Origin: a virus | Virus record (IMG/VR): IMGVR_UViG_3300045988_134434 | DNA: 36,924 nt | Strand: one strand, 5' to 3' | Part shown: positions 2,357-36,924 of the stretch, one piece after another | Numbering within the stretch: position 1 is the stretch's first letter | Layout of the letters: each line of letters begins with the position of its first letter | The notes under the pieces: generated by a model | What the model was told of the DNA's origin: nothing | Databases searched by the model: none | What the model saw: only the letters and a program-made list of their open reading frames with translations | Made by a program: the position numbers and the translations under genes

Positions 2357-3373
2357 TTACATTTCCAACATGTCATAAAATACGTTTTCTGATATTATTT
2401 CTATATTTTGACCACTTTCTTTTAATTTCTCTGCTTTAAGCTGTTTTGTGCTTTTACCATCAGGATCTTTAATCAAAGGGCAATAATCATTGTTTCCAAG
2501 AATTAAAAAATTAGTTTTCTTTGTAACACTCTTTCCATTTTCTCCCCCAAAATCTACAACAAGCTGCATAGCTTGCTTTCTATTCATTTTTTCTAGGGTG
2601 CCAGTAAACACACAAACTTGTCCATATAGTGGATGAGTAATATCAAATTCTGTTTTATCTGTAGTAATATCTTTACAGTCTAGAGGTTTCCTTTTATTTA
2701 TTGCCCTCTTGTAAAATTCGTCTGCAGCATTTCCATCATTTCCAATTACATTTTTAATATGTTGATAAACATTATGAGTAATCTTACAATCAGCAATAGC
2801 TCTGTGAGAACCAGCAGAATCTATATTCAACTCTTGTGCTACTGTTTTAAGTTTGTAATCAGGAAGATCTGATAAAAATCTTTTACTAAACCTCATAACA
2901 TCTATTAAATCATTTTTTATAGGAGAAATATTTCTAGTAAGAGCTTCGTCATATAAAAAATTTATGTCAAAATGCACATTATAGCCAAGTATAATAGAAT
3001 CTCCTGCAAATTGCATAAAATCTTTAATCCCATTTATAGGATTTTCAGCATTATCCAACATTTCTGGGGTGATACCAGTAAGTTTTTGTATAAAATCAGA
3101 CAGCATAGATATATCGTCCGGCCTACAAAATCTTTGGAATTCTTCTACTATTACATTATCAACAACTTTAATTGCACCAATTTCCAAAATATCATCAACC
3201 AATGGATCTAATCCAGTAGTTTCTAAATCCAATACAATATAGTCATCAGGAAACATAAAAAGGCTATTTCCTTTCATGGGTCTAACTCTATATCCATTTT
3301 CATCTAAAATAAAAAAATCTTCTTTCCTTAATTCCATTGATTTAGTATCAGATTTAAAGTTAAATAAACTCAT
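2357..3373 (-). CDS. DnaQ-like DEDDh 3'-5' exonuclease fused to a C-terminal BRCT domain.
   Basis: Exo I motif VLDLETTGLDP, Exo II region ILGYNVHFDINFL, and Exo III motif HRAIADC (DEDDh type). The C-terminal region VCVFTGTL...AMQLVVDFGGENGKSVTKKTNFLILG is BRCT-like. The likely true start is ATG 3373 (MSLFNF), with a GGAGGGG RBS that lies inside the last codons of the repressor gene, 13 nt past its stop. Confidence 0.75.
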   Translation of the reverse strand: MSLFNFKSDTKSMELRKEDFFILDENGYRVRPMKGNSLFMFPDDYIVLDLETTGLDPLVDDILEIGAIKVVDNVIVEEFQRFCRPDDISMLSDFIQKLTGITPEMLDNAENPINGIKDFMQFAGDSIILGYNVHFDINFLYDEALTRNISPIKNDLIDVMRFSKRFLSDLPDYKLKTVAQELNIDSAGSHRAIADCKITHNVYQHIKNVIGNDGNAADEFYKRAINKRKPLDCKDITTDKTEFDITHPLYGQVCVFTGTLEKMNRKQAMQLVVDFGGENGKSVTKKTNFLILGNNDYCPLIKDPDGKSTKQLKAEKLKESGQNIEIISENVFYDMLEM

Positions 3374-3386
3374 AACACCCCTCCAT

Positions 3387-3701
3387 TTACTTGCCATATT
3401 TCATCTTTAAAAATTCTTTAAAGTTTTCCAACTCTGCCTTTGCTTCATCACTCATATCTTCATCAGTATGTGCTGCAAAAGTTTCTGGATGATTTCTTAC
3501 ATTTGTGCGACCAAGGAGATAATCAACCGATACTTCAAATAAATCTGACATTGATCTAAGTATATCAAGACTAGGTTCAACTATTCCATTTTCGTATTTT
3601 GAAATATTAGACTTAGTTAAATTTAACCTATTAGCCAGATCAGTTTGAGTCATGTTAAATTCTTTTCTTAGTAATTTTATTCTATTCCCAAGCAAATTCA
3701 T
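3387..3701 (-). CDS. CI-like XRE-family HTH repressor.
   Basis: HTH motif MTQTDLANRLNLTKSNISKYENG. The true start is ATG 3701, with an AAGGAGGG RBS. It is divergent from a cro-like gene across an operator-bearing intergenic region. Confidence 0.85.
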   Translation of the reverse strand: MNLLGNRIKLLRKEFNMTQTDLANRLNLTKSNISKYENGIVEPSLDILRSMSDLFEVSVDYLLGRTNVRNHPETFAAHTDEDMSDEAKAELENFKEFLKMKYGK

Positions 3702-3779
3702 AGTATCCCTCCTTGCTTTGTATACTATAATTCTACAGTGTTTCACCACAAGAAACAAGCCTATAGAAAAAAGTTTCAT

Positions 3780-16906: not shown

Positions 16907-17233
16907 ATGGAAGAAGTTTTCAAACTAAACAAGAGTCAGAAAATCAAGTCTAATAAAATTCATAAGGCAATAATTGACCAAATGAAGGAAAATGGAACTC
17001 ACAAAGAGCCATACATTGATATTGCTGAACGATATATGGCAATGTGGGAAGTTACCATAATGCTTGAAGAAGATATCCGAGATCGTGGAGTTCAGATTAT
17101 GACAGAAAAAGGACTAAAGAAAAATGATTCAGTAGCGATGTTAACTAATCTTAATAAGCAGATGTTAATATGCCTTGAAAAGCTAGGCCTGTCTACCTCA
17201 ACGGTTAAGCATGAGCTTGGCGGTGATATCTAG
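16907..17233 (+). CDS. terS: Terminase small subunit (P27-family-like).
   Basis: About 108 aa. GAAAGGGGG RBS upstream of ATG 16907. It lies directly upstream of TerL and overlaps it. KEPYIDIAERYMAMWEV pattern. Confidence 0.6.
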   Translation: MEEVFKLNKSQKIKSNKIHKAIIDQMKENGTHKEPYIDIAERYMAMWEVTIMLEEDIRDRGVQIMTEKGLKKNDSVAMLTNLNKQMLICLEKLGLSTSTVKHELGGDI

Positions 17234-18885
17234 TGAAATATAACACTGGATGTAAGTATTTTGATAAGTGGTTTGAATTGTGCGACAAACAGCCAACTAG
17301 TATATGGAATTTGCATTTAAGGTCCTTAATTCTCAAAAAAATAGAGAAACAGAATATATATGTTGATGTTAAGAAAGTCGATAAATTAATAAAAACTATT
17401 GAAAAATATAGACCCTACAAGCTGGCACCAGTGCAGAAGTTCTTACACTGTATTCCCTACACTTACCTAGCACCAGGCATAAAAGCATGGAACGAAATCC
17501 TCATTGAAAGTGGTAGAGGATTTGGTAAAAATGCCTATGTAAGTGATTACATCTTAGGGGCAACTAGCAATGTAAATGGTATAAAAGGCTACAATGTTGA
17601 TATAGTTGCCACGTCAGAAGACCAGGCTAAAACATCATTTGCAGATGTGTATAATGCCATAGGAGATAACACAGATTTACAAAGAGCATATAAAAGGACC
17701 CTGGTGGAAATTGAATTCGTTAGGACTAATTCAAAAGTCAAATACTATACTTCCAACGCTAAGACTAAAGACGGACTTAGACCTGGAGCAGTGGTATTTG
17801 ATGAAATACATGCTTATGAGGACTATGATAATATCAAGGTGTTTAGGTCTGCACTAGGTAAAGTCCCTGAACCACTGACTATATATATTACTACTAATGG
17901 ATATGTCAGAGGTGGGGTATTAGATGACCTAGTAACAGAAGGTAAGGAATGCTTACTTGAACAAGACTTAGAATCCAAACTATTCCCTTTTATTGCAGTC
18001 ATTGACAGATACGAAGAATGGGACGACCCCAGCCTATGGGTCAAGGCAAATCCAATGATTCCATACTTGCCTATTCTAGAGCAAGAATATAAGGATGCAT
18101 TTAGGAATGCTAAGAAAAGACCACATATGAAGGTTGAGTTTATAACCAAGCGTTTAAATTTCACCATGGAAGATACAGACACTGCTGTTGCTTCTTGGGA
18201 AGATATCCTGGCAACCAATCAAGAGGTAAACTGGAAGGACTTTATGGGGTGTTCATGTGTTGGTGGTGTAGACTATGCGAGTTCGAGAGACTTCATAGGT
18301 GTTGGGTTATTGTTCAAGAAGATAGTCAATGACAATACTAAGTACTATTTTAAGCACCATACATTCATTGTCGAAGAGAGTCTAAAGCTAGTAAAATTCA
18401 AGGTGGATTTAGATAGGGCCATTAGTGAGGGACTAGTTACTATTGTTCCAGGAAAAACAATGGATCCTAGATATTTGACAAGTTGGTTCTTGAATGAAGT
18501 AAAAGAGAATAGGTATATCATTGAAGCGATAGCAACAGATGATTATAGATATGAACTAATTAAGGACGATTTCAACGAGGTAGGTCTGCCACTTACCACA
18601 GTTAGAAGTGGTCCTATTTCTCACGGGAAAATTGCACCAATAATTGAAAAGCTATTTGCTGATAACAACCTTGTATTTGGTGATGATATGATGATGAGAT
18701 GGTATACGAACAACGTTAAGGTAGTCACTGATGGTAAGGGAAATAAGACTTATCAAAAGCAGGATCCTGAAAGACGAAAGACAGATGGATTTATGGCATT
18801 TATTCACGCTATGTTAAAACGGGACTCTATAAGGATAGCCACAATGGCCAATATTAACAAGGGATTTAAAACATACACATATTAA
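17233..18885 (+). CDS. terL: Terminase large subunit.
   Basis: Walker A-like GRGFGKNAYVS, Walker B VVFDEIHAYED, and a C-terminal nuclease domain. GTG start overlaps the terS stop. Confidence 0.9.
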   Translation: MKYNTGCKYFDKWFELCDKQPTSIWNLHLRSLILKKIEKQNIYVDVKKVDKLIKTIEKYRPYKLAPVQKFLHCIPYTYLAPGIKAWNEILIESGRGFGKNAYVSDYILGATSNVNGIKGYNVDIVATSEDQAKTSFADVYNAIGDNTDLQRAYKRTLVEIEFVRTNSKVKYYTSNAKTKDGLRPGAVVFDEIHAYEDYDNIKVFRSALGKVPEPLTIYITTNGYVRGGVLDDLVTEGKECLLEQDLESKLFPFIAVIDRYEEWDDPSLWVKANPMIPYLPILEQEYKDAFRNAKKRPHMKVEFITKRLNFTMEDTDTAVASWEDILATNQEVNWKDFMGCSCVGGVDYASSRDFIGVGLLFKKIVNDNTKYYFKHHTFIVEESLKLVKFKVDLDRAISEGLVTIVPGKTMDPRYLTSWFLNEVKENRYIIEAIATDDYRYELIKDDFNEVGLPLTTVRSGPISHGKIAPIIEKLFADNNLVFGDDMMMRWYTNNVKVVTDGKGNKTYQKQDPERRKTDGFMAFIHAMLKRDSIRIATMANINKGFKTYTY

Positions 18886-32511: not shown

Positions 32512-33564
32512 ATGGCTACTTTAAATTTGAATACTGAGAAAATAGACAAGCTATATATCGGCAGTCAGCTAGTAGTTGAGTCAGGCGGGCTTACCAGTGG
32601 AAGCTTTATACCTATAGATAAGCTAGTTGAAAAAAGAGACAGAAGCCTCATTTTTGAAAATACAAACAAAGCATTTGATGCACAGTATAGCAATTTTTCA
32701 TGGCATAAATTAATGGGCGAATACGATGGGAAATATGTGTTTTCATCAAGTAATACAACTATATTTGTTGAAAAAGATAGTTTAAACGTAGAAAAAAAGT
32801 ACTTTGGTGTACCTGCATATAATGGGTTTATATATAAAACAAATACAATGGTTGGTTATTACGGTGGGACCTTAGCATTAATAAATTTAGAATCTGGGAA
32901 ATACACCAACCTTAATGTTAATTGTGAGTTAGCGGTGTGTATAAATCACAAGTCATTTTACGTAGTAGGACCAAACCTTAAAGGGCTAACTGATGTGCCT
33001 AATGCGGAGATCGTGATAGTAAATAGCCTAGAAGATAAATCTAAAAATGTTGTTATAAAAACACCTGAAACAATTTTTAAACAAGGGGTTGAGGTGGTTT
33101 TCATAAACGATAAATTCTTATACTATACAAAAGATGATAAGTGTTTGTATACATATGACTTAAATACCCATACCAACAACAAAATACATACCGGACTATC
33201 AAGTAAATATATTCAAGTGAATTATCAAACAGGAAAGGTTTTATTTGAGTCGAATTCTAATATATATGAAATAAGAGATAGTACAGTTGTGGTTGCGAAT
33301 AAATTGGTAGACAATCAGGTTTACTTACATACCCTTCGCAGTAAATACGACCATTTTCTAGCATTAACTCAAGATGGAAAGTTAATCATATTAGATGAGC
33401 AGCTAGATGTAGTAGTCACAAAAGATTTAGACTTGAACGAAGCCTTTTTGTTAGATGTGAGCGATAATAACATATTTATACAAGTTGGGAGAGCGTCAGG
33501 CTCTCAAAAAATGGTCTACAATTTTGATTTTAGTGAAAAGATTATAGGATATACTGTAAAATAA
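32512..33564 (+). CDS. Putative receptor-binding / distal fibre protein (beta-rich repeats).
   Basis: Position after the BppU-like gene. Recurrent YxYDLNT-like motifs. Confidence 0.35.
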   Translation: MATLNLNTEKIDKLYIGSQLVVESGGLTSGSFIPIDKLVEKRDRSLIFENTNKAFDAQYSNFSWHKLMGEYDGKYVFSSSNTTIFVEKDSLNVEKKYFGVPAYNGFIYKTNTMVGYYGGTLALINLESGKYTNLNVNCELAVCINHKSFYVVGPNLKGLTDVPNAEIVIVNSLEDKSKNVVIKTPETIFKQGVEVVFINDKFLYYTKDDKCLYTYDLNTHTNNKIHTGLSSKYIQVNYQTGKVLFESNSNIYEIRDSTVVVANKLVDNQVYLHTLRSKYDHFLALTQDGKLIILDEQLDVVVTKDLDLNEAFLLDVSDNNIFIQVGRASGSQKMVYNFDFSEKIIGYTVK

Positions 33565-33581
33565 AGAAAGGGAGTATAAAA

Positions 33582-33980
33582 ATGACAGCAGCACATTTAT
33601 TTGATTTTTTTAGAGGTTGTACAAACACACAGGAATCAAGAGTTGTATTCGTGCTAGCACTAATAGCTAGTGCTATGATTATTGATTTTATAACTGGGGT
33701 AATTGGAGCTTGGGTAAACCCTAAAATAGATTTTAAATCTAAGGCCGGGATTAATGGGATTCTAAGGAAAGTGGCCAGTATGTTAGCACTAACAATATTC
33801 TTGCCGGTTAGCACATTGCTACCAAGCGGGATAGATACAATGCTTATATCCACGCTATATATAGGGTACTTATTCTTTGAAATGAAGTCAATAATAGAAA
33901 ACCTAGGGAAATGCGGCATTGACACAACGCTTTTCAAGGATATACTAGGCAAGATGTCAGGAAAAACAGAAGATAAATAA
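33582..33980 (+). CDS. Holin (TcdE / phi LC3-like family).
   Basis: DFITGVIGAWVNPKIDFKSKAGINGILRKVASMLALTIFLPV with predicted TM segments. It lies immediately upstream of the endolysin. Confidence 0.75.
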   Translation: MTAAHLFDFFRGCTNTQESRVVFVLALIASAMIIDFITGVIGAWVNPKIDFKSKAGINGILRKVASMLALTIFLPVSTLLPSGIDTMLISTLYIGYLFFEMKSIIENLGKCGIDTTLFKDILGKMSGKTEDK

Positions 33981-34043
33981 ATTTTAATTTTGAGGTGGTC
34001 TTTACGGCCACCTTTTATATTTTAGGAAAGTGAGGTAAAAAAG

Positions 34044-34883
34044 ATGAAGATATTCTTAAGTGTTGGGCACTCAATTTTAAAAGGTGGTGGCTGCACATCA
34101 GCTAGTGGATATACTCACGAGTATAAATATAATAAGGAGCTAGCCCCGTATATTAAGAGGATTTTAGAATTACTAGGTCATTCATGCGACGTGATAGTTT
34201 GCCCTGAGGGAGTATTCCCAAGTAAAAGAAGTGAATATAGCTATAAAATTCCAATAGCAAATTCAGGCAAGTATGATCTTGTCTGCGAACTGCATTTAAA
34301 TGCTGCAGATGGTGCAGGGCATGGTGTAGAAGTTTTCCACTATCCAGGAGATAAAAAGGGCTATAGCATAGCCAATCAGATATGTAAGAATATCAGTAGC
34401 CTAGGCTTTACCAATCGTGGACCAATAACCGGACAACTATATATGATAAACGACACTAAGCCAACAGCTGTACTTGTGGAGTCTTTTTTCTGTGACAATA
34501 AAAAGGATTCAGACCAGGCTAAGAAAATAGGATTTGAGAAGATGGCCCAGGCTATAGCTTATGGTATTTTAGGTAAGGCCCCCGATAGCACCATAGAAGA
34601 AGTTGAGCAGACCACTCAAAGGGCAGTCCCTAAGTCAGGATGGACTGAAGAAAACGGCGGGTGGTACTATTACGATAAGGGCAAGAAAAGAACTGGCTGG
34701 CTAAAGTCAGGATCTAAGTGGTTTTACCTAAAACCAGACAAAGACGGGGAGATGGCCACAGGTTGGCTAAAATACAATAACAATTGGTTTTACTTCAATT
34801 CTAAAGGTTATTGTATGACGGGCAAGCAGGTCATTGACGGTAAGACACATGAATTTGATAAAGACGGCTACTTGATAAAGTAG
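34044..34883 (+). CDS. Endolysin: N-acetylmuramoyl-L-alanine amidase with C-terminal choline-binding-like cell-wall repeats.
   Basis: N-terminal LSVGHSILKGGG...ELHLNAA (amidase_3-like). C-terminal GWTEENGGWYYYDKGKKRTGWLKSGSKWFYL...GWLKYNNNWFYF repeats. Confidence 0.8.
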   Translation: MKIFLSVGHSILKGGGCTSASGYTHEYKYNKELAPYIKRILELLGHSCDVIVCPEGVFPSKRSEYSYKIPIANSGKYDLVCELHLNAADGAGHGVEVFHYPGDKKGYSIANQICKNISSLGFTNRGPITGQLYMINDTKPTAVLVESFFCDNKKDSDQAKKIGFEKMAQAIAYGILGKAPDSTIEEVEQTTQRAVPKSGWTEENGGWYYYDKGKKRTGWLKSGSKWFYLKPDKDGEMATGWLKYNNNWFYFNSKGYCMTGKQVIDGKTHEFDKDGYLIK

Positions 34884-34890
34884 GCATTAA

Positions 34891-34921
34891 AATAGGGGGC
34901 TCAGTTGCCCCCTTATTTTTC
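34891..34921. terminator. Strong bidirectional terminator (gggggctcagttgccccc) between the endolysin and the convergent minus-strand cargo gene.
   Basis: A perfect GC-rich stem flanked by T-runs on the plus strand and A-runs on the other strand. Confidence 0.75.
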
Positions 34922-34935
34922 GTTTTTATTCATAT

Positions 34936-35307
34936 TTATTCATATCTATGATCTTTGATATGAATGTATTCTTTATTATCTATGCATATACGAGATACTG
35001 TTTTTTCTATCTCATAATCTCCAACAAACTGAATTATACAACTTTTTCCGGCATTATATACATTGATTTTCTTAGCTCTGGCCTCAAAAACCATCGCCTC
35101 ATCATCGTACACTCGCAACCATGTATCTGCTTCATATACCTTCTTATAATAATCAGGTATCTCAACAGTTTCATCAACTAGGTATCCCTTATAGTCTCCA
35201 TCTGAACCAGTATGCACTTCACCAATATTACATGGTGATTTTAATATTAGTGTAGCTATATCACTGTATCCCAGATCGACTACTTTGTCCTTATAATTTT
35301 TACTCAT
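34936..35307 (-). CDS. Hypothetical 123-aa cargo protein with its own consensus promoter.
   Basis: AAGGAG RBS. Upstream lie TTGACA-17-TATAAT (35369-35397, minus strand) and an A/T-rich UP-like tract. No motif was recognised. Confidence 0.5.
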   Translation of the reverse strand: MSKNYKDKVVDLGYSDIATLILKSPCNIGEVHTGSDGDYKGYLVDETVEIPDYYKKVYEADTWLRVYDDEAMVFEARAKKINVYNAGKSCIIQFVGDYEIEKTVSRICIDNKEYIHIKDHRYE

Positions 35308-35368
35308 TTTCTTAGTCTCCTTTTAACTTATATTTTCCGAGGTTTTCCTTAACTCTTTCTTTAATTAT

Positions 35369-35397
35369 ATTATACCTTAGTCGTACCGACTTGTCAA
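35369..35397 (-). promoter_or_regulatory. Consensus sigma-70 promoter (TTGACA-17 nt-TATAAT) with palindromic operator AGTCGGTACGACT in the spacer. Copy 1 of 2.
   Basis: The minus strand reads ttgacaagtcggtacgactaaggtataat. The 52-bp block 35361-35412 is repeated at 35899-35950. Confidence 0.65.
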
Positions 35398-35403
35398 TAC
35401 TTT

Positions 35404-35586
35404 TTATAAACTTTTTTCAATTTTTTCTATAATTATTTTTTTACCATCGATAGAGATTTTAACTTCTCTATCTTCTGCTGTGGCTCCTATTTCATCAACC
35501 CATGGGACAGGTAAAGTAATTTTTGTCGACCTGAATCCATTTCCATTTCTGCTAAACAACACTTTAACAATTCTTTCCTCTTTCAT
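35404..35586 (-). CDS. AbrB/MazE/SpoVT-like swapped-hairpin DNA-binding protein (antitoxin-like regulator).
   Basis: RSTKITLPVPWVDEIGATAEDREVKISIDGKKIIIEK matches the SpoVT/AbrB domain pattern. 60 aa. Confidence 0.55.
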   Translation of the reverse strand: MKEERIVKVLFSRNGNGFRSTKITLPVPWVDEIGATAEDREVKISIDGKKIIIEKIEKSL

Positions 35587-35688
35587 TTATTAGACCCCTT
35601 GTGATATAATGAAATTGAAAACTGGTGGGGCATACACCAGTATTCAATTTTTTTGTAACTACCTTACTACTGCGATAGTGAGGTAGTT

Positions 35689-35844
35689 TTAATCTTCAAT
35701 TGTTTTTTGTAAATCTGAGATTATTTTTTCTAACTTCTGGTTTTTTGTGTCGCTGTCATTTTCTGACCTAGTTTCTTCTAGTCTGTCAATTAGCATCCTT
35801 AGAAAACCACTAAACTGCTTATCTGTCATTCCCATGTCCTTCAT
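35689..35844 (-). CDS. Unannotated 51-aa coiled-coil ORF (MKDMGMTDKQFSGFLRMLIDRLEETRSENDSDTKNQKLEKIISDLQKTIED). First gene of the minus-strand cassette.
   Basis: GAAAGGAG RBS 6 nt upstream of the ATG. It lies about 50 nt downstream of promoter copy 2. It falls below the track's length cutoff. Confidence 0.45.
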   Translation of the reverse strand: MKDMGMTDKQFSGFLRMLIDRLEETRSENDSDTKNQKLEKIISDLQKTIED

Positions 35845-35906
35845 CTTTTTCTCCTTTCTGCTTAATGCCCTTTGCCAACTTGTAAGTTATCTCTTACTGT
35901 AATTAT

Positions 35907-35935
35907 ATTATACTTTAGTCGTACCGACTTGTCAA
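35907..35935 (-). promoter_or_regulatory. Consensus sigma-70 promoter with the same palindromic operator. Copy 2 of 2.
   Basis: The minus strand reads ttgacaagtcggtacgactaaagtataat. An A/T-rich UP-like tract lies upstream. Confidence 0.65.
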
Positions 35936-35981
35936 TACTTTTTATAAACTTTTTTTAAAAAAGATACTTTTTTCCTTGATA

Positions 35982-36048
35982 TGTACTCATCTAAATTCAT
36001 GTGGTATAATGGAATAAAGAACATATGTTCTTTATATAATGAAAGGAG
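35982..36048 (+). promoter_or_regulatory. Extended -10 promoter (TGgTATAAT at 36002-36010) followed by a perfect 18-bp palindrome aaagaacatatgttcttt (36016-36033) and the RBS of the MTase gene.
   Basis: Read directly from the sequence. The palindrome sits between the -10 element and the RBS. Confidence 0.5.
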
Positions 36049-36054
36049 ATTAAT

Positions 36055-36807
36055 GTGGAAAGTATTTTTAATTATAAATTGAAAAAGGGTGACTGCCTAG
36101 AATTGATGAAAGAAATAGAAAGTGATACTATAGATATGATACTGGCTGATCTGCCATATGGGACTACAGCATGTAAGTGGGATTGTATTATAAGCTTAGA
36201 TGCCTTATGGAAAGAGTATAATAGAATTTTAAAACCTGGTGGGGTGGTTGTTCTATTTTCAGCACAGCCATTTACAACTAAGCTTATAAACTCTAATATC
36301 AAGGACTATAAATATTCATGGTATTGGGTAAAAAATAATGTCACGGGCTTTAGTTTTGCGAAATATCAACCTATGAGAAAAGTGGAAGATATAAATGTGT
36401 TTTATAAGAAACATCCTCCATATAATCCACAAGGGCTAGTAAAGCTAGATAATCCTAAAAATATTATTCGAAAGAAGCCCACTAGAGAGACTATATATGA
36501 TGGCAAAGATGTGCTATGTAAGGAATATTTACAAAAATACACTAACTATCCTAATAATGTTTTAAACTTCAGCAAAGAAAGCAAGTGCGTACACCCGACA
36601 CAAAAGCCAGTGCAGCTACTTGAATATTTGATTAAAACTTATACAGATGAAGGAATGCTTGTATTAGACAATTGCATGGGCAGTGGGTCCACTGGGGTTG
36701 CCTGTGGTAATTTAGGCAGAAGATTTATAGGGATTGAATTAGAAGATAAATATTTTGAAATATCCAAAAAACGCATTACTCAAGCATACAAAGGAAGCCA
36801 AGGCTAG
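36055..36807 (+). CDS. Beta-class DNA methyltransferase (N4-cytosine or N6-adenine).
   Basis: Motif IV region ILADLPYGTT precedes motif I VLDNCMGSGSTGVACGNLGRRFIGIELEDKYFEISKKRI. GTG start with an AAAGGAG RBS. Confidence 0.8.
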   Translation: MESIFNYKLKKGDCLELMKEIESDTIDMILADLPYGTTACKWDCIISLDALWKEYNRILKPGGVVVLFSAQPFTTKLINSNIKDYKYSWYWVKNNVTGFSFAKYQPMRKVEDINVFYKKHPPYNPQGLVKLDNPKNIIRKKPTRETIYDGKDVLCKEYLQKYTNYPNNVLNFSKESKCVHPTQKPVQLLEYLIKTYTDEGMLVLDNCMGSGSTGVACGNLGRRFIGIELEDKYFEISKKRITQAYKGSQG

Positions 36808-36869
36808 ATAGCAAAAATTACAAAAATTCACGCCTTAATTATTGAGATAATAACACACTAGAAACAAAT

Positions 36870-36924
36870 TTTATACAAACATTGAAATTTCAATACTTTG
36901 AGTTCGGCAAAAGATAGCAAAAAG
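36870..36924. repeat. Right copy of the 55-bp terminal direct repeat (candidate attR core).
   Basis: Identical to 1-55. Confidence 0.6.

Follow-up and report, generated by a model that had tools for sequence, protein, structure and literature searches.

What a small AbrB-like protein controls between two copies of a strong promoter, and whether its neighbors are its toxin partners, is the question raised by a minus-strand cassette near the right end of the IMG/VR virus record IMGVR_UViG_3300045988_134434 (36,924 nucleotides; the whole of this stretch is referred to below as the window). An earlier note on this DNA had read the cassette as toxin-antitoxin (TA) or defence-like logic in which the AbrB-like protein autoregulates both promoters. 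Following our analysis, the cassette is fairly likely to be a negatively autoregulated modular moron, in which a 60-amino-acid (aa) protein represses both promoters (P1 and P2) through a palindrome. The cargo would not be the toxin partner of this regulator, because it is an exchangeable open reading frame (ORF) plugged in at the ATG start codon.

Reading the minus strand from 35960 to 34890, the order of elements was P2, a 51-aa ORF, two hairpins, a 60-aa ORF, P1, a 123-aa ORF and a bidirectional terminator, and the three ORFs listed in the earlier note were all present. The first gene of the P2 transcript is the 51-aa leader ORF (35689-35844, minus strand), which has an AGGAG ribosome-binding site (RBS) and encodes an acidic (pI 4.8), helical protein. 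The 60-aa ORF (35404-35586, minus strand) encodes a basic protein (pI 9.2), and its last codons overlap the upstream (UP) tract of P1. The 123-aa ORF (34936-35307, minus strand) encodes an acidic (pI 5.1), all-beta cargo protein of an undescribed family with a core of ~95 aa. The cassette ends at a G+C-rich intrinsic terminator active in both orientations by sequence (34894-34913, both strands), which is common to the 123-aa gene and the convergent amidase endolysin gene (34044-34883) as previously noted.

The promoter-bearing repeat was real and was longer than the 52 bp first reported, with two blocks of 72 nt at 35349-35420 (copy 1, P1) and 35887-35958 (copy 2, P2) that were 93% identical. 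Each copy contained, on the minus strand, a sigma-70 promoter matching the consensus at 12 of 12 positions (TTGACA-17 nt-TATAAT), in agreement with the two strong promoters described earlier. In P2 an A/T-rich UP tract was followed by the -35 element TTGACA (35935-35930), the putative operator AGTCGGTACGACT (35929-35917), the -10 element TATAAT (35912-35907), a predicted transcription start at ~35900 and a conserved initial transcribed region, ATAATTACAGTAAGAG. The corresponding elements of P1 were located at 35397-35392 (-35), 35391-35379 (AGTCGGTACGACT) and 35374-35369 (-10), with a predicted start at ~35362 and a conserved initial transcribed region. The P1 block was followed by a 5' untranslated region (5'UTR) and RBS (to 35308) common to other cargo genes in related phages. 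P1 and P2 were the only 12/12 promoter sites in the 3.4 kb scanned (33500-36924), and the 29-nt promoter core gave 2 matches where 0.00 were expected.

The 13-bp palindrome AGTCG-gta-CGACT starts the spacer directly after the -35 element in both promoters. In the 36.9 kb of the window, AGTCG-NNN-CGACT occurred only at 35379-35391 and 35917-35929, even when one mismatch was allowed (0.09 expected). Palindromes of 5+5 containing GC were found at the -35 edge of 7 out of 40 distinct strong promoters compared to 0.22 expected from shuffled spacers (P ~2e-9), the seven representing only ~4 independent types. A protein bound in the spacer of an already consensus promoter is expected to repress rather than activate transcription. 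Since the palindrome fills the spacer of a consensus promoter with optimal spacing, repression and not activation would be predicted.

The regulator itself was assigned through its family. Searched alone, the 60-aa protein was below the threshold for Pfam PF04014 (MazE_antitoxin/AbrB; E = 0.17, 12.3 vs 24.7 bits) and matched phrog_2329, whose function is unannotated, at E = 3e-18. Profiles of the protein and its relatives had as best PDB match the N-terminal domain of AbrB (1z0r, 2k1n and 1yfb; E = 1e-3 to 2.5e-3), in an alignment spanning residues 22-57, the RxxxP...LG...IIIxK core. PF04014 was matched by all six sampled family members (best E = 3.8e-5), and several relatives carry a precomputed PF04014 match. 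A profile search with the family returned 378 clusters, mostly proteins of 55-65 aa, and relatives from Clostridioides, Terrisporobacter, Metaclostridioides and Fusobacterium are named 'AbrB/MazE/SpoVT family DNA-binding domain-containing protein' by NCBI. The family profile, the PF04014 matches and the NCBI names therefore agree on the AbrB/MazE/SpoVT affinity that had been suggested. A SymE-like toxin was considered and rejected, as the only Pfam match at E <= 1 in 6 members was MazE_antitoxin, with no match to SymE_toxin, a family of ~110 aa.

The 60-aa protein aligns over its whole length with the ~50-aa N-domain of AbrB and stops 2-3 residues after the last aligned strand, and thus has no toxin-binding tail. 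Among eight cassette variants, 16 of the 20 variable sites in its ORF were at third codon positions, indicating a real gene under purifying selection. The 51-aa ORF had six of nine variable sites at codon position 3, and judging from these patterns both ORFs evolve as coding sequence. On the alignments, the 60-aa protein is a DNA-binding domain only, belonging to a phage branch of the AbrB/MazE/SpoVT superfamily.

Other architectures of the same domain were observed in related phages. The AbrB-like domain forms the N-terminus of 142-229-aa proteins that have variable unannotated C-terminal domains and adjoin lysis genes (L102 2977-3666, L106 2457-2954, L001 5070-5498 and L101 1-444, where L numbers designate related loci). 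An antitoxin-like layout suits these longer forms more than the 60-aa form, and the longer forms might be involved in signal sensing or partner binding. C. difficile phages carry one or two small AbrB-like paralogs, annotated as conserved hypothetical, directly beside the endolysin gene and before the integrase gene (L115 1069-1254 and 1945-2121; L015 2998-3174, from Clostridium phage phiCD24-1, CEK40243).

The evidence linking this regulator to the palindrome came from a comparison of ~60 related loci. The AGTCGGTACGACT promoter was present at all loci with the 60-aa gene (type A), and there were two copies of it whenever the contig spanned both sites. In IMG/VR phages with a homolog 47-57% identical, the same position after TTGACA was occupied by AGTCG-aca-CGACT, AGTCG-tac-CGACT or AGTCG-tag-CGATT. 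The center of the site is free while the half-sites are kept, a pattern as expected for a dimer site. In L102-L107 a promoter of the AGTCG/CGACT type was located directly upstream of the regulator gene itself. In L001, L005 and L006 the same 123-aa gene and 5'UTR were found behind a promoter with the spacer TAACGT-g-ACGTTA, and the 60-aa gene was absent. These loci encode instead a 142-aa protein whose first 57 residues are paralogous to the 60-aa protein (39% identity, E = 8e-13), and such paralogs of 142-147 aa (type B) paired with ACGTTAT boxes in two to three promoters per cassette. Both regulators and both operator types were present in L003, each operator type beside its own regulator gene.

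More distant relatives followed the same rule with other sequences. Fusobacterium- and Clostridioides-type phages had their own palindromes at the -35 edge, namely ACCGT-a-ACGGT, ACGG-a-CCGT and GTAATG-t-CATTAC, the first two being repeated once at a distance of 38 or 28 bp downstream. In L138 and L140 the AbrB-like gene came directly after its operator-bearing promoter and headed an operon with Bro/KilAC antirepressor-like genes. Two loci, L145 and L148, kept the whole architecture of methyltransferase, promoter/operator, small acidic helical ORF, hairpin, small regulator, promoter/operator, 123-aa gene and endolysin, and had a regulator of another kind (type C). This was a non-homologous basic protein of 60-61 aa (pI ~10) with a basic N-terminal stretch, a leucine-rich helical C-terminus and no Pfam match, encoded at 2280-2462 in L145 and 3221-3406 in L148. 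A third palindrome, TATACTA-N4-TAGTATA, overlapped the -10 element at both promoters of these loci (1480/2479 in L145 and 2912/3423 in L148), which thus represent a non-homologous replacement of regulator and operator. No locus with a discordant regulator and operator was seen among the ~60. The 60-aa protein most likely binds AGTCG-gta-CGACT as a dimer or tetramer, and its earlier description as a probable autorepressor of both promoters is supported by this covariation across many loci.

The comparison also indicated that the cassette is assembled from interchangeable parts. When eight promoter blocks were aligned, a single scaffold of UP tract, -35, -10, initial transcribed region (invariantly ATAATTAAAGAAAGAG), small 5'UTR hairpin and RBS was apparent, and only the operator segment differed. 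The same 5'UTR and RBS preceded different ORFs, exchanged exactly at the ATG, including the 123-aa gene in the window and L001, a 75-aa acidic product in L101 and L135, and a 161-aa acidic product in L133, a type B locus. All four combinations of operator/regulator type (A or B) with cargo (123 or 75 aa) were found, with swaps exactly at the -10 or the ATG, and the 123-aa gene was also found with the unrelated type C regulator. In other prophages a 123-aa homolog was located beside a different endolysin gene, with an unrelated promoter and no small regulator nearby. The products of the cassette promoters were nearly all small, soluble and acidic (pI 4.2-5.1), a profile seen more often in phage inhibitors or host-interaction proteins than in toxins or membrane exclusion proteins.

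One feature of the scaffold deserves separate mention. The sequence ATAATTA(A/C)AG(A/T)AAGAG just 3' of each -10 (minus strand, 35349-35368 and 35887-35906 in the window) was nearly invariant despite differing operators and cargo, and was also found in L001, L003, L101, L133 and L135. Possible roles are those of a recombination junction, a stabiliser of the mRNA 5' end or a second regulatory site.

The earlier note had copy 2 driving both the 51-aa and the 60-aa genes. P2 does precede both genes, but terminator-like hairpins separate them, which were missing from that note, and the 60-aa gene is therefore not simply co-transcribed with the 51-aa ORF. Two hairpins were identified at 35613-35688 (minus strand), one with a 13-bp stem (35657-35688) and one with a 7-bp G+C stem (35621-35641; extension brings it to ~15 bp) that precedes UUUUCAAUUU. 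From the 51-aa stop to the 60-aa start, the sequence had a folding free energy of -32.1 kcal/mol (z = -4.73), and none of 200 shuffled sequences folded as well. The second hairpin with its U-tract (UUUUCAAUUU) scanned as an intrinsic terminator. Matches to Rfam across 34800-36100 were at chance level only, even with permissive thresholds, and hence no known RNA element was found in the hairpin region. No convincing separate promoter for the 60-aa gene was found in 35587-35688, and together with the hairpins this suggests that the gene is probably expressed by read-through from P2. The hairpin pair is probably a leaky terminator or attenuator that would limit expression of the regulator. The 51-aa ORF had been described as unannotated, but it is called as a gene of 51 or 48 aa in public assemblies.

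These elements suggest the following sequence of events. When the phage DNA enters a repressor-free cell, both consensus promoters would fire and give a burst of the 51-aa and 123-aa proteins. P2 would transcribe the 51-aa leader, and only transcripts reading through the two hairpins would reach the repressor gene, so that the hairpins delay as well as limit repressor synthesis. P1 would transcribe the 123-aa cargo and stop at the terminator common to the endolysin gene. The repressor would then occupy both operators and exclude RNA polymerase from these sigma-A promoters, and in the lysogen the cassette would be shut off to a low, self-set level.

Several other explanations of the palindromes were weighed against repression by the 60-aa protein. 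They may be the operators of another protein, such as the 51-aa leader product, a CI/Cro protein or a host factor, with the 60-aa protein having some other target. The 48-aa variant of the leader gave a very weak match to HTH_70, a helix-turn-helix (HTH) family (E = 0.09), and the leader always accompanies the type A regulator in the closest loci. However, loci lacking a 51-aa homolog (L102-L109, type B cassettes, and Fusobacterium- and Clostridioides-type phages) still have an operator type that goes with the AbrB-like clade. CI was rejected as the binder, as the window and L002 share the same operator sequence although the HTH halves of their CI proteins have only ~43% identity. A host factor would leave unexplained the occurrence of at least three operator types within prophages of apparently one host genus, and we regard binding by another protein as unlikely overall. 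A further alternative is that the AbrB/SpoVT homolog acts mainly in trans on host genes, as a transition-state or sporulation mimic, a role already proposed for abrB/spoVT-like genes of phages, and that the local palindrome is incidental or secondary. Surveys list abrB and spoVT homologs among the 'sporulation genes' of gut phages (PMC10294663, PMC10075063). Against such a role, a matched, duplicated, promoter-embedded palindrome changes with the protein clade, and the 60-aa family is distant from AbrB (E ~1e-3). Peptostreptococcus, the host genus identified below, is not known to sporulate, and a mainly trans-acting role has a very low probability. Lower still in our estimation is an unregulated, duplicated constitutive promoter whose palindrome was simply carried along by the duplication. 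With 93% identity between the two blocks, conservation of the palindrome within one phage proves nothing. The relatives at 47-57% identity do bear on this point since they keep the half-sites while the central triplet changes, and the other clades have palindromes at the same position, some with a second copy 28-38 bp downstream. Given also the enrichment over shuffled spacers, an incidental palindrome was rejected.

The remaining alternative returns to the earlier proposal, a type II TA or abortive infection system in which a 60-aa antitoxin neutralises a toxin of 123 aa (or 51 aa) and controls its own expression through the palindrome. The weak similarity to PF04014 (MazE_antitoxin) and a layout of a small upstream gene, a ~120-aa downstream gene and a palindrome at the promoter are in keeping with this. 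The genes do not form a single operon, as the 60-aa and 123-aa genes are separated by a complete promoter, P1, and the terminator-like hairpins follow the 51-aa gene, ahead of the regulator gene. The regulator and cargo are not co-inherited as a cognate pair, as the four A/B by 123/75-aa combinations all occur in addition to the 161-aa and type C cases, and the 123-aa gene is also found behind an unrelated regulator or with no small regulator nearby. A toxin-neutralising extension is absent from the 60-aa protein. None of the 10 cassette proteins matched a toxin or defence family in PADLOC or NCBIfam, with none near the curated cut-offs, and the acidic, soluble cargo had no toxin or defence match in Pfam or PHROGs. 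The label of SymE type I 'toxin' on a Fusobacterium phage homolog (ON464760) is the annotation of its depositor. Because of the free re-assortment, the intervening promoter, the missing tail and the lack of toxin or defence matches, a cognate antitoxin-toxin relation was not supported and a TA system appears very unlikely. The toxin-antitoxin or defence logic of the earlier note was accordingly set aside in favor of an autoregulated cassette with exchangeable cargo.

The 123-aa cargo belongs to a larger family than was at first apparent. A word-indexed search returned only near-identical relatives in 16 clusters, while an exhaustive HMMER search with the family returned 479 representatives at E <= 1e-3 and 210 at E <= 1e-10, each representing a cluster at 50% identity. 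Conserved positions within the ~95-aa core are Y5, G13, S15-D16, D36, Y39, Y54, W63, D68-D69, Y84 and G87. Members are mostly standalone proteins of ~100 aa, some being fused C-terminally to unannotated domains, and those sampled were located in accessory regions of phages and of elements resembling integrative and conjugative elements. No relative of the 123-aa protein was found in GTDB representative genomes, and the family had no match in PHROGs or Pfam.

A structure prediction for the 123-aa protein had been suggested, and AlphaFold gave a confident model from 71 diverse homologs (predicted local distance difference test, pLDDT, 92.4; predicted template modelling score, pTM, 0.83), whereas an AlphaFold 2 model from 15 close homologs was poor (pLDDT 57). 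The model is an all-beta sandwich without a significant fold match, with nothing below E = 1e-3 in Foldseek searches of the PDB and BFVD, and the protein is still unannotated. There was a weak fold resemblance to ComJ/Nin, which inhibits the DNA-entry nuclease NucA/ComI (PDB 4mqd; Foldseek E = 0.09, 10% identity). Membership of the ComJ/Nin sequence family was rejected, as none of the 71 members matched Pfam ComJ and the neighbors of the 123-aa gene are the endolysin and regulator genes, with no adjoining nuclease gene; no PDB sequence match was found either. ComJ-like proteins have been classed as immunity proteins of nuclease toxins (PMC3482391), and for this reason a protein-binding inhibitor, possibly of a nuclease, is our leading if doubtful guess. 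In broader terms, and with low confidence, the cargo may act on a host or competitor protein as an inhibitor or an immunity-type factor.

In another prophage lineage the 123-aa homolog adjoins a divergent cluster that encodes a 409-415-aa protein, a 100-aa protein and a SNF2-type helicase of ~470-500 aa (L098/L099 796-3801; L147 and L149-L151, upstream of 3501). The cluster possibly represents a defence or anti-defence island that occupies the same hotspot after the lysis genes.

The classical immI region of phage P22, with the Arc (and Mnt) repressors acting at Pant, is a useful comparison. In both cases a very small beta-strand-type repressor is encoded inside the operon that it represses or would repress, and a palindromic operator overlaps a strong accessory-region promoter, which gives or would give a burst and then shut-off of small genes. 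The antirepressor-like operons of L138 and L140 are a further likeness. However, Arc is a ribbon-helix-helix protein and not a member of the AbrB swapped-hairpin superfamily, and the window differs in its two separate operator-bearing promoters, the hairpin attenuator predicted before the repressor gene and a cargo that is not an antirepressor. Morons of lambdoid and other temperate phages, as defined by Hendrix and Juhala, are likewise independent units with their own promoter and terminator, located between the lysis and att/integrase modules and polymorphic for presence and absence. The present cassette differs from these in having a dedicated repressor and a reusable promoter scaffold, with exchange of operator and cargo at the -10 and ATG. 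TA systems of the MazE/AbrB type (e.g. mazEF; PMC4333400) share the DNA-binding superfamily, negative autoregulation through a promoter palindrome and a small gene pair, but not the tail-less regulator, divided transcription, re-assorting partners and lack of any detected toxin family described above. B. subtilis AbrB, Abh and SpoVT (1z0r, 2k1n, 1yfb; PMC3025583) include the best sequence matches of solved structure, and the RxxxP...LG...IxI region aligns. The binding sites of AbrB are degenerate and number in the hundreds, and AbrB has an oligomerisation domain at its C-terminus, whereas the 60-aa protein has a longer N-terminal hairpin loop (NGNGF), has no equivalents of Arg23/Arg24 and pairs with one 13-bp palindrome.

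Autoregulated morons and AbrB-family repressors are thus known kinds. New at this locus are a reusable promoter scaffold on which operator and regulator are exchanged together, the replacement of cargo at the ATG, and a cargo family that has no annotation. No description of the cassette or of phage AbrB-like local repressors was found in the literature. Phages of gut and oral Firmicutes and Fusobacteria commonly carry small AbrB/SpoVT-like genes, which have so far been read as antitoxins or hijacked sporulation regulators; the window and its relatives suggest that their products may instead be dedicated local repressors with sharply defined 13-bp operators inside consensus promoters. Three natural regulator-operator pairs on one scaffold could serve as a set of orthogonal repressor-promoter tools in anaerobes that are hard to manipulate genetically. 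The architecture further points to small acidic proteins, including the unannotated family of 479 clusters, as candidates for counter-defence or lysogenic conversion in oral biofilm bacteria. A more speculative extension, which we hold only tentatively and consider rather improbable as a whole, is a portable platform of switchable specificity in phages of Peptostreptococcaceae and Fusobacterium in which the promoter scaffold and a cognate small repressor (type A, B or C) deliver exchangeable acidic effectors at cell entry in a burst followed by shut-off. The ComJ-like 123-aa protein would then be the first member of a new and widespread family of inhibitors, carried by mobile elements, of a host nuclease or defence protein, and the 51-aa leader might modulate the repressor as AbbA does AbrB.

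By module content the window is a whole prophage, with an integrase (690-1751), a CI-like HTH repressor (3387-3779, minus strand), replication genes, TerL (17233-18885), tail genes and a holin (33582-33980) in addition to the endolysin. The phage is a temperate Peptostreptococcus siphovirus with the cassette at its lysis end. The host was identified through the CodY gene flanking the prophage on contigs with host DNA, which was 100% identical to that of an uncultured Peptostreptococcus sp. metagenome-assembled genome and 96% identical to that of P. stomatis. Prophage contigs from metagenomes, human oral ones among them, encode identical copies of the cassette proteins, while a DNA search with the cassette and the right half of the window returned no match among 50,697 GenBank phages.

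The earlier view of the cassette as a self-contained moron between the lysis genes and the prophage end held, as the cassette has its own promoters and terminator and its content differs among related phages with common neighboring lysis genes. A gene for an N6/N4 DNA methyltransferase (36055-36807, GTG start, divergent from P2) intervenes before that end, and the cassette lies between the endolysin gene and the methyltransferase/att region.

The CI-like repressors mentioned above are mosaic. Those of the window (3387-3779, minus strand) and L002 (377-697) are 100% identical over the C-terminal 42 residues in contrast to the divergent HTH half, which suggests that prophages otherwise related to each other have recently exchanged their immunity specificity.

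The methyltransferase gene has a control region of its own. The sequence GAACATATGTTC at 36019-36030 (plus strand) is a perfect core of the Gram-positive LexA/DinR (Cheo) box and sits inside an 18-bp palindrome, AAAGAACATATGTTCTTT (36016-36033), between an extended -10 element (TGTGGTATAAT, ~36000-36010) and the RBS and GTG start. GAAC-N4-GTTC occurred at two sites in the window compared to 0.19 expected, and the same box precedes the methyltransferase gene in L145 and L148. This suggests that the phage methyltransferase, transcribed divergently from P2, is SOS-controlled.

At the opposite end of the window, the gene for a 346-aa protein (2357-3397, minus strand) with a DnaQ/RNase T-type exonuclease domain and a C-terminal BRCT domain lies between those for the CI-like repressor and the integrase. 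The protein is an unusual occupant of a lysogeny module, and related phages carry a Bro-N protein at this position instead.

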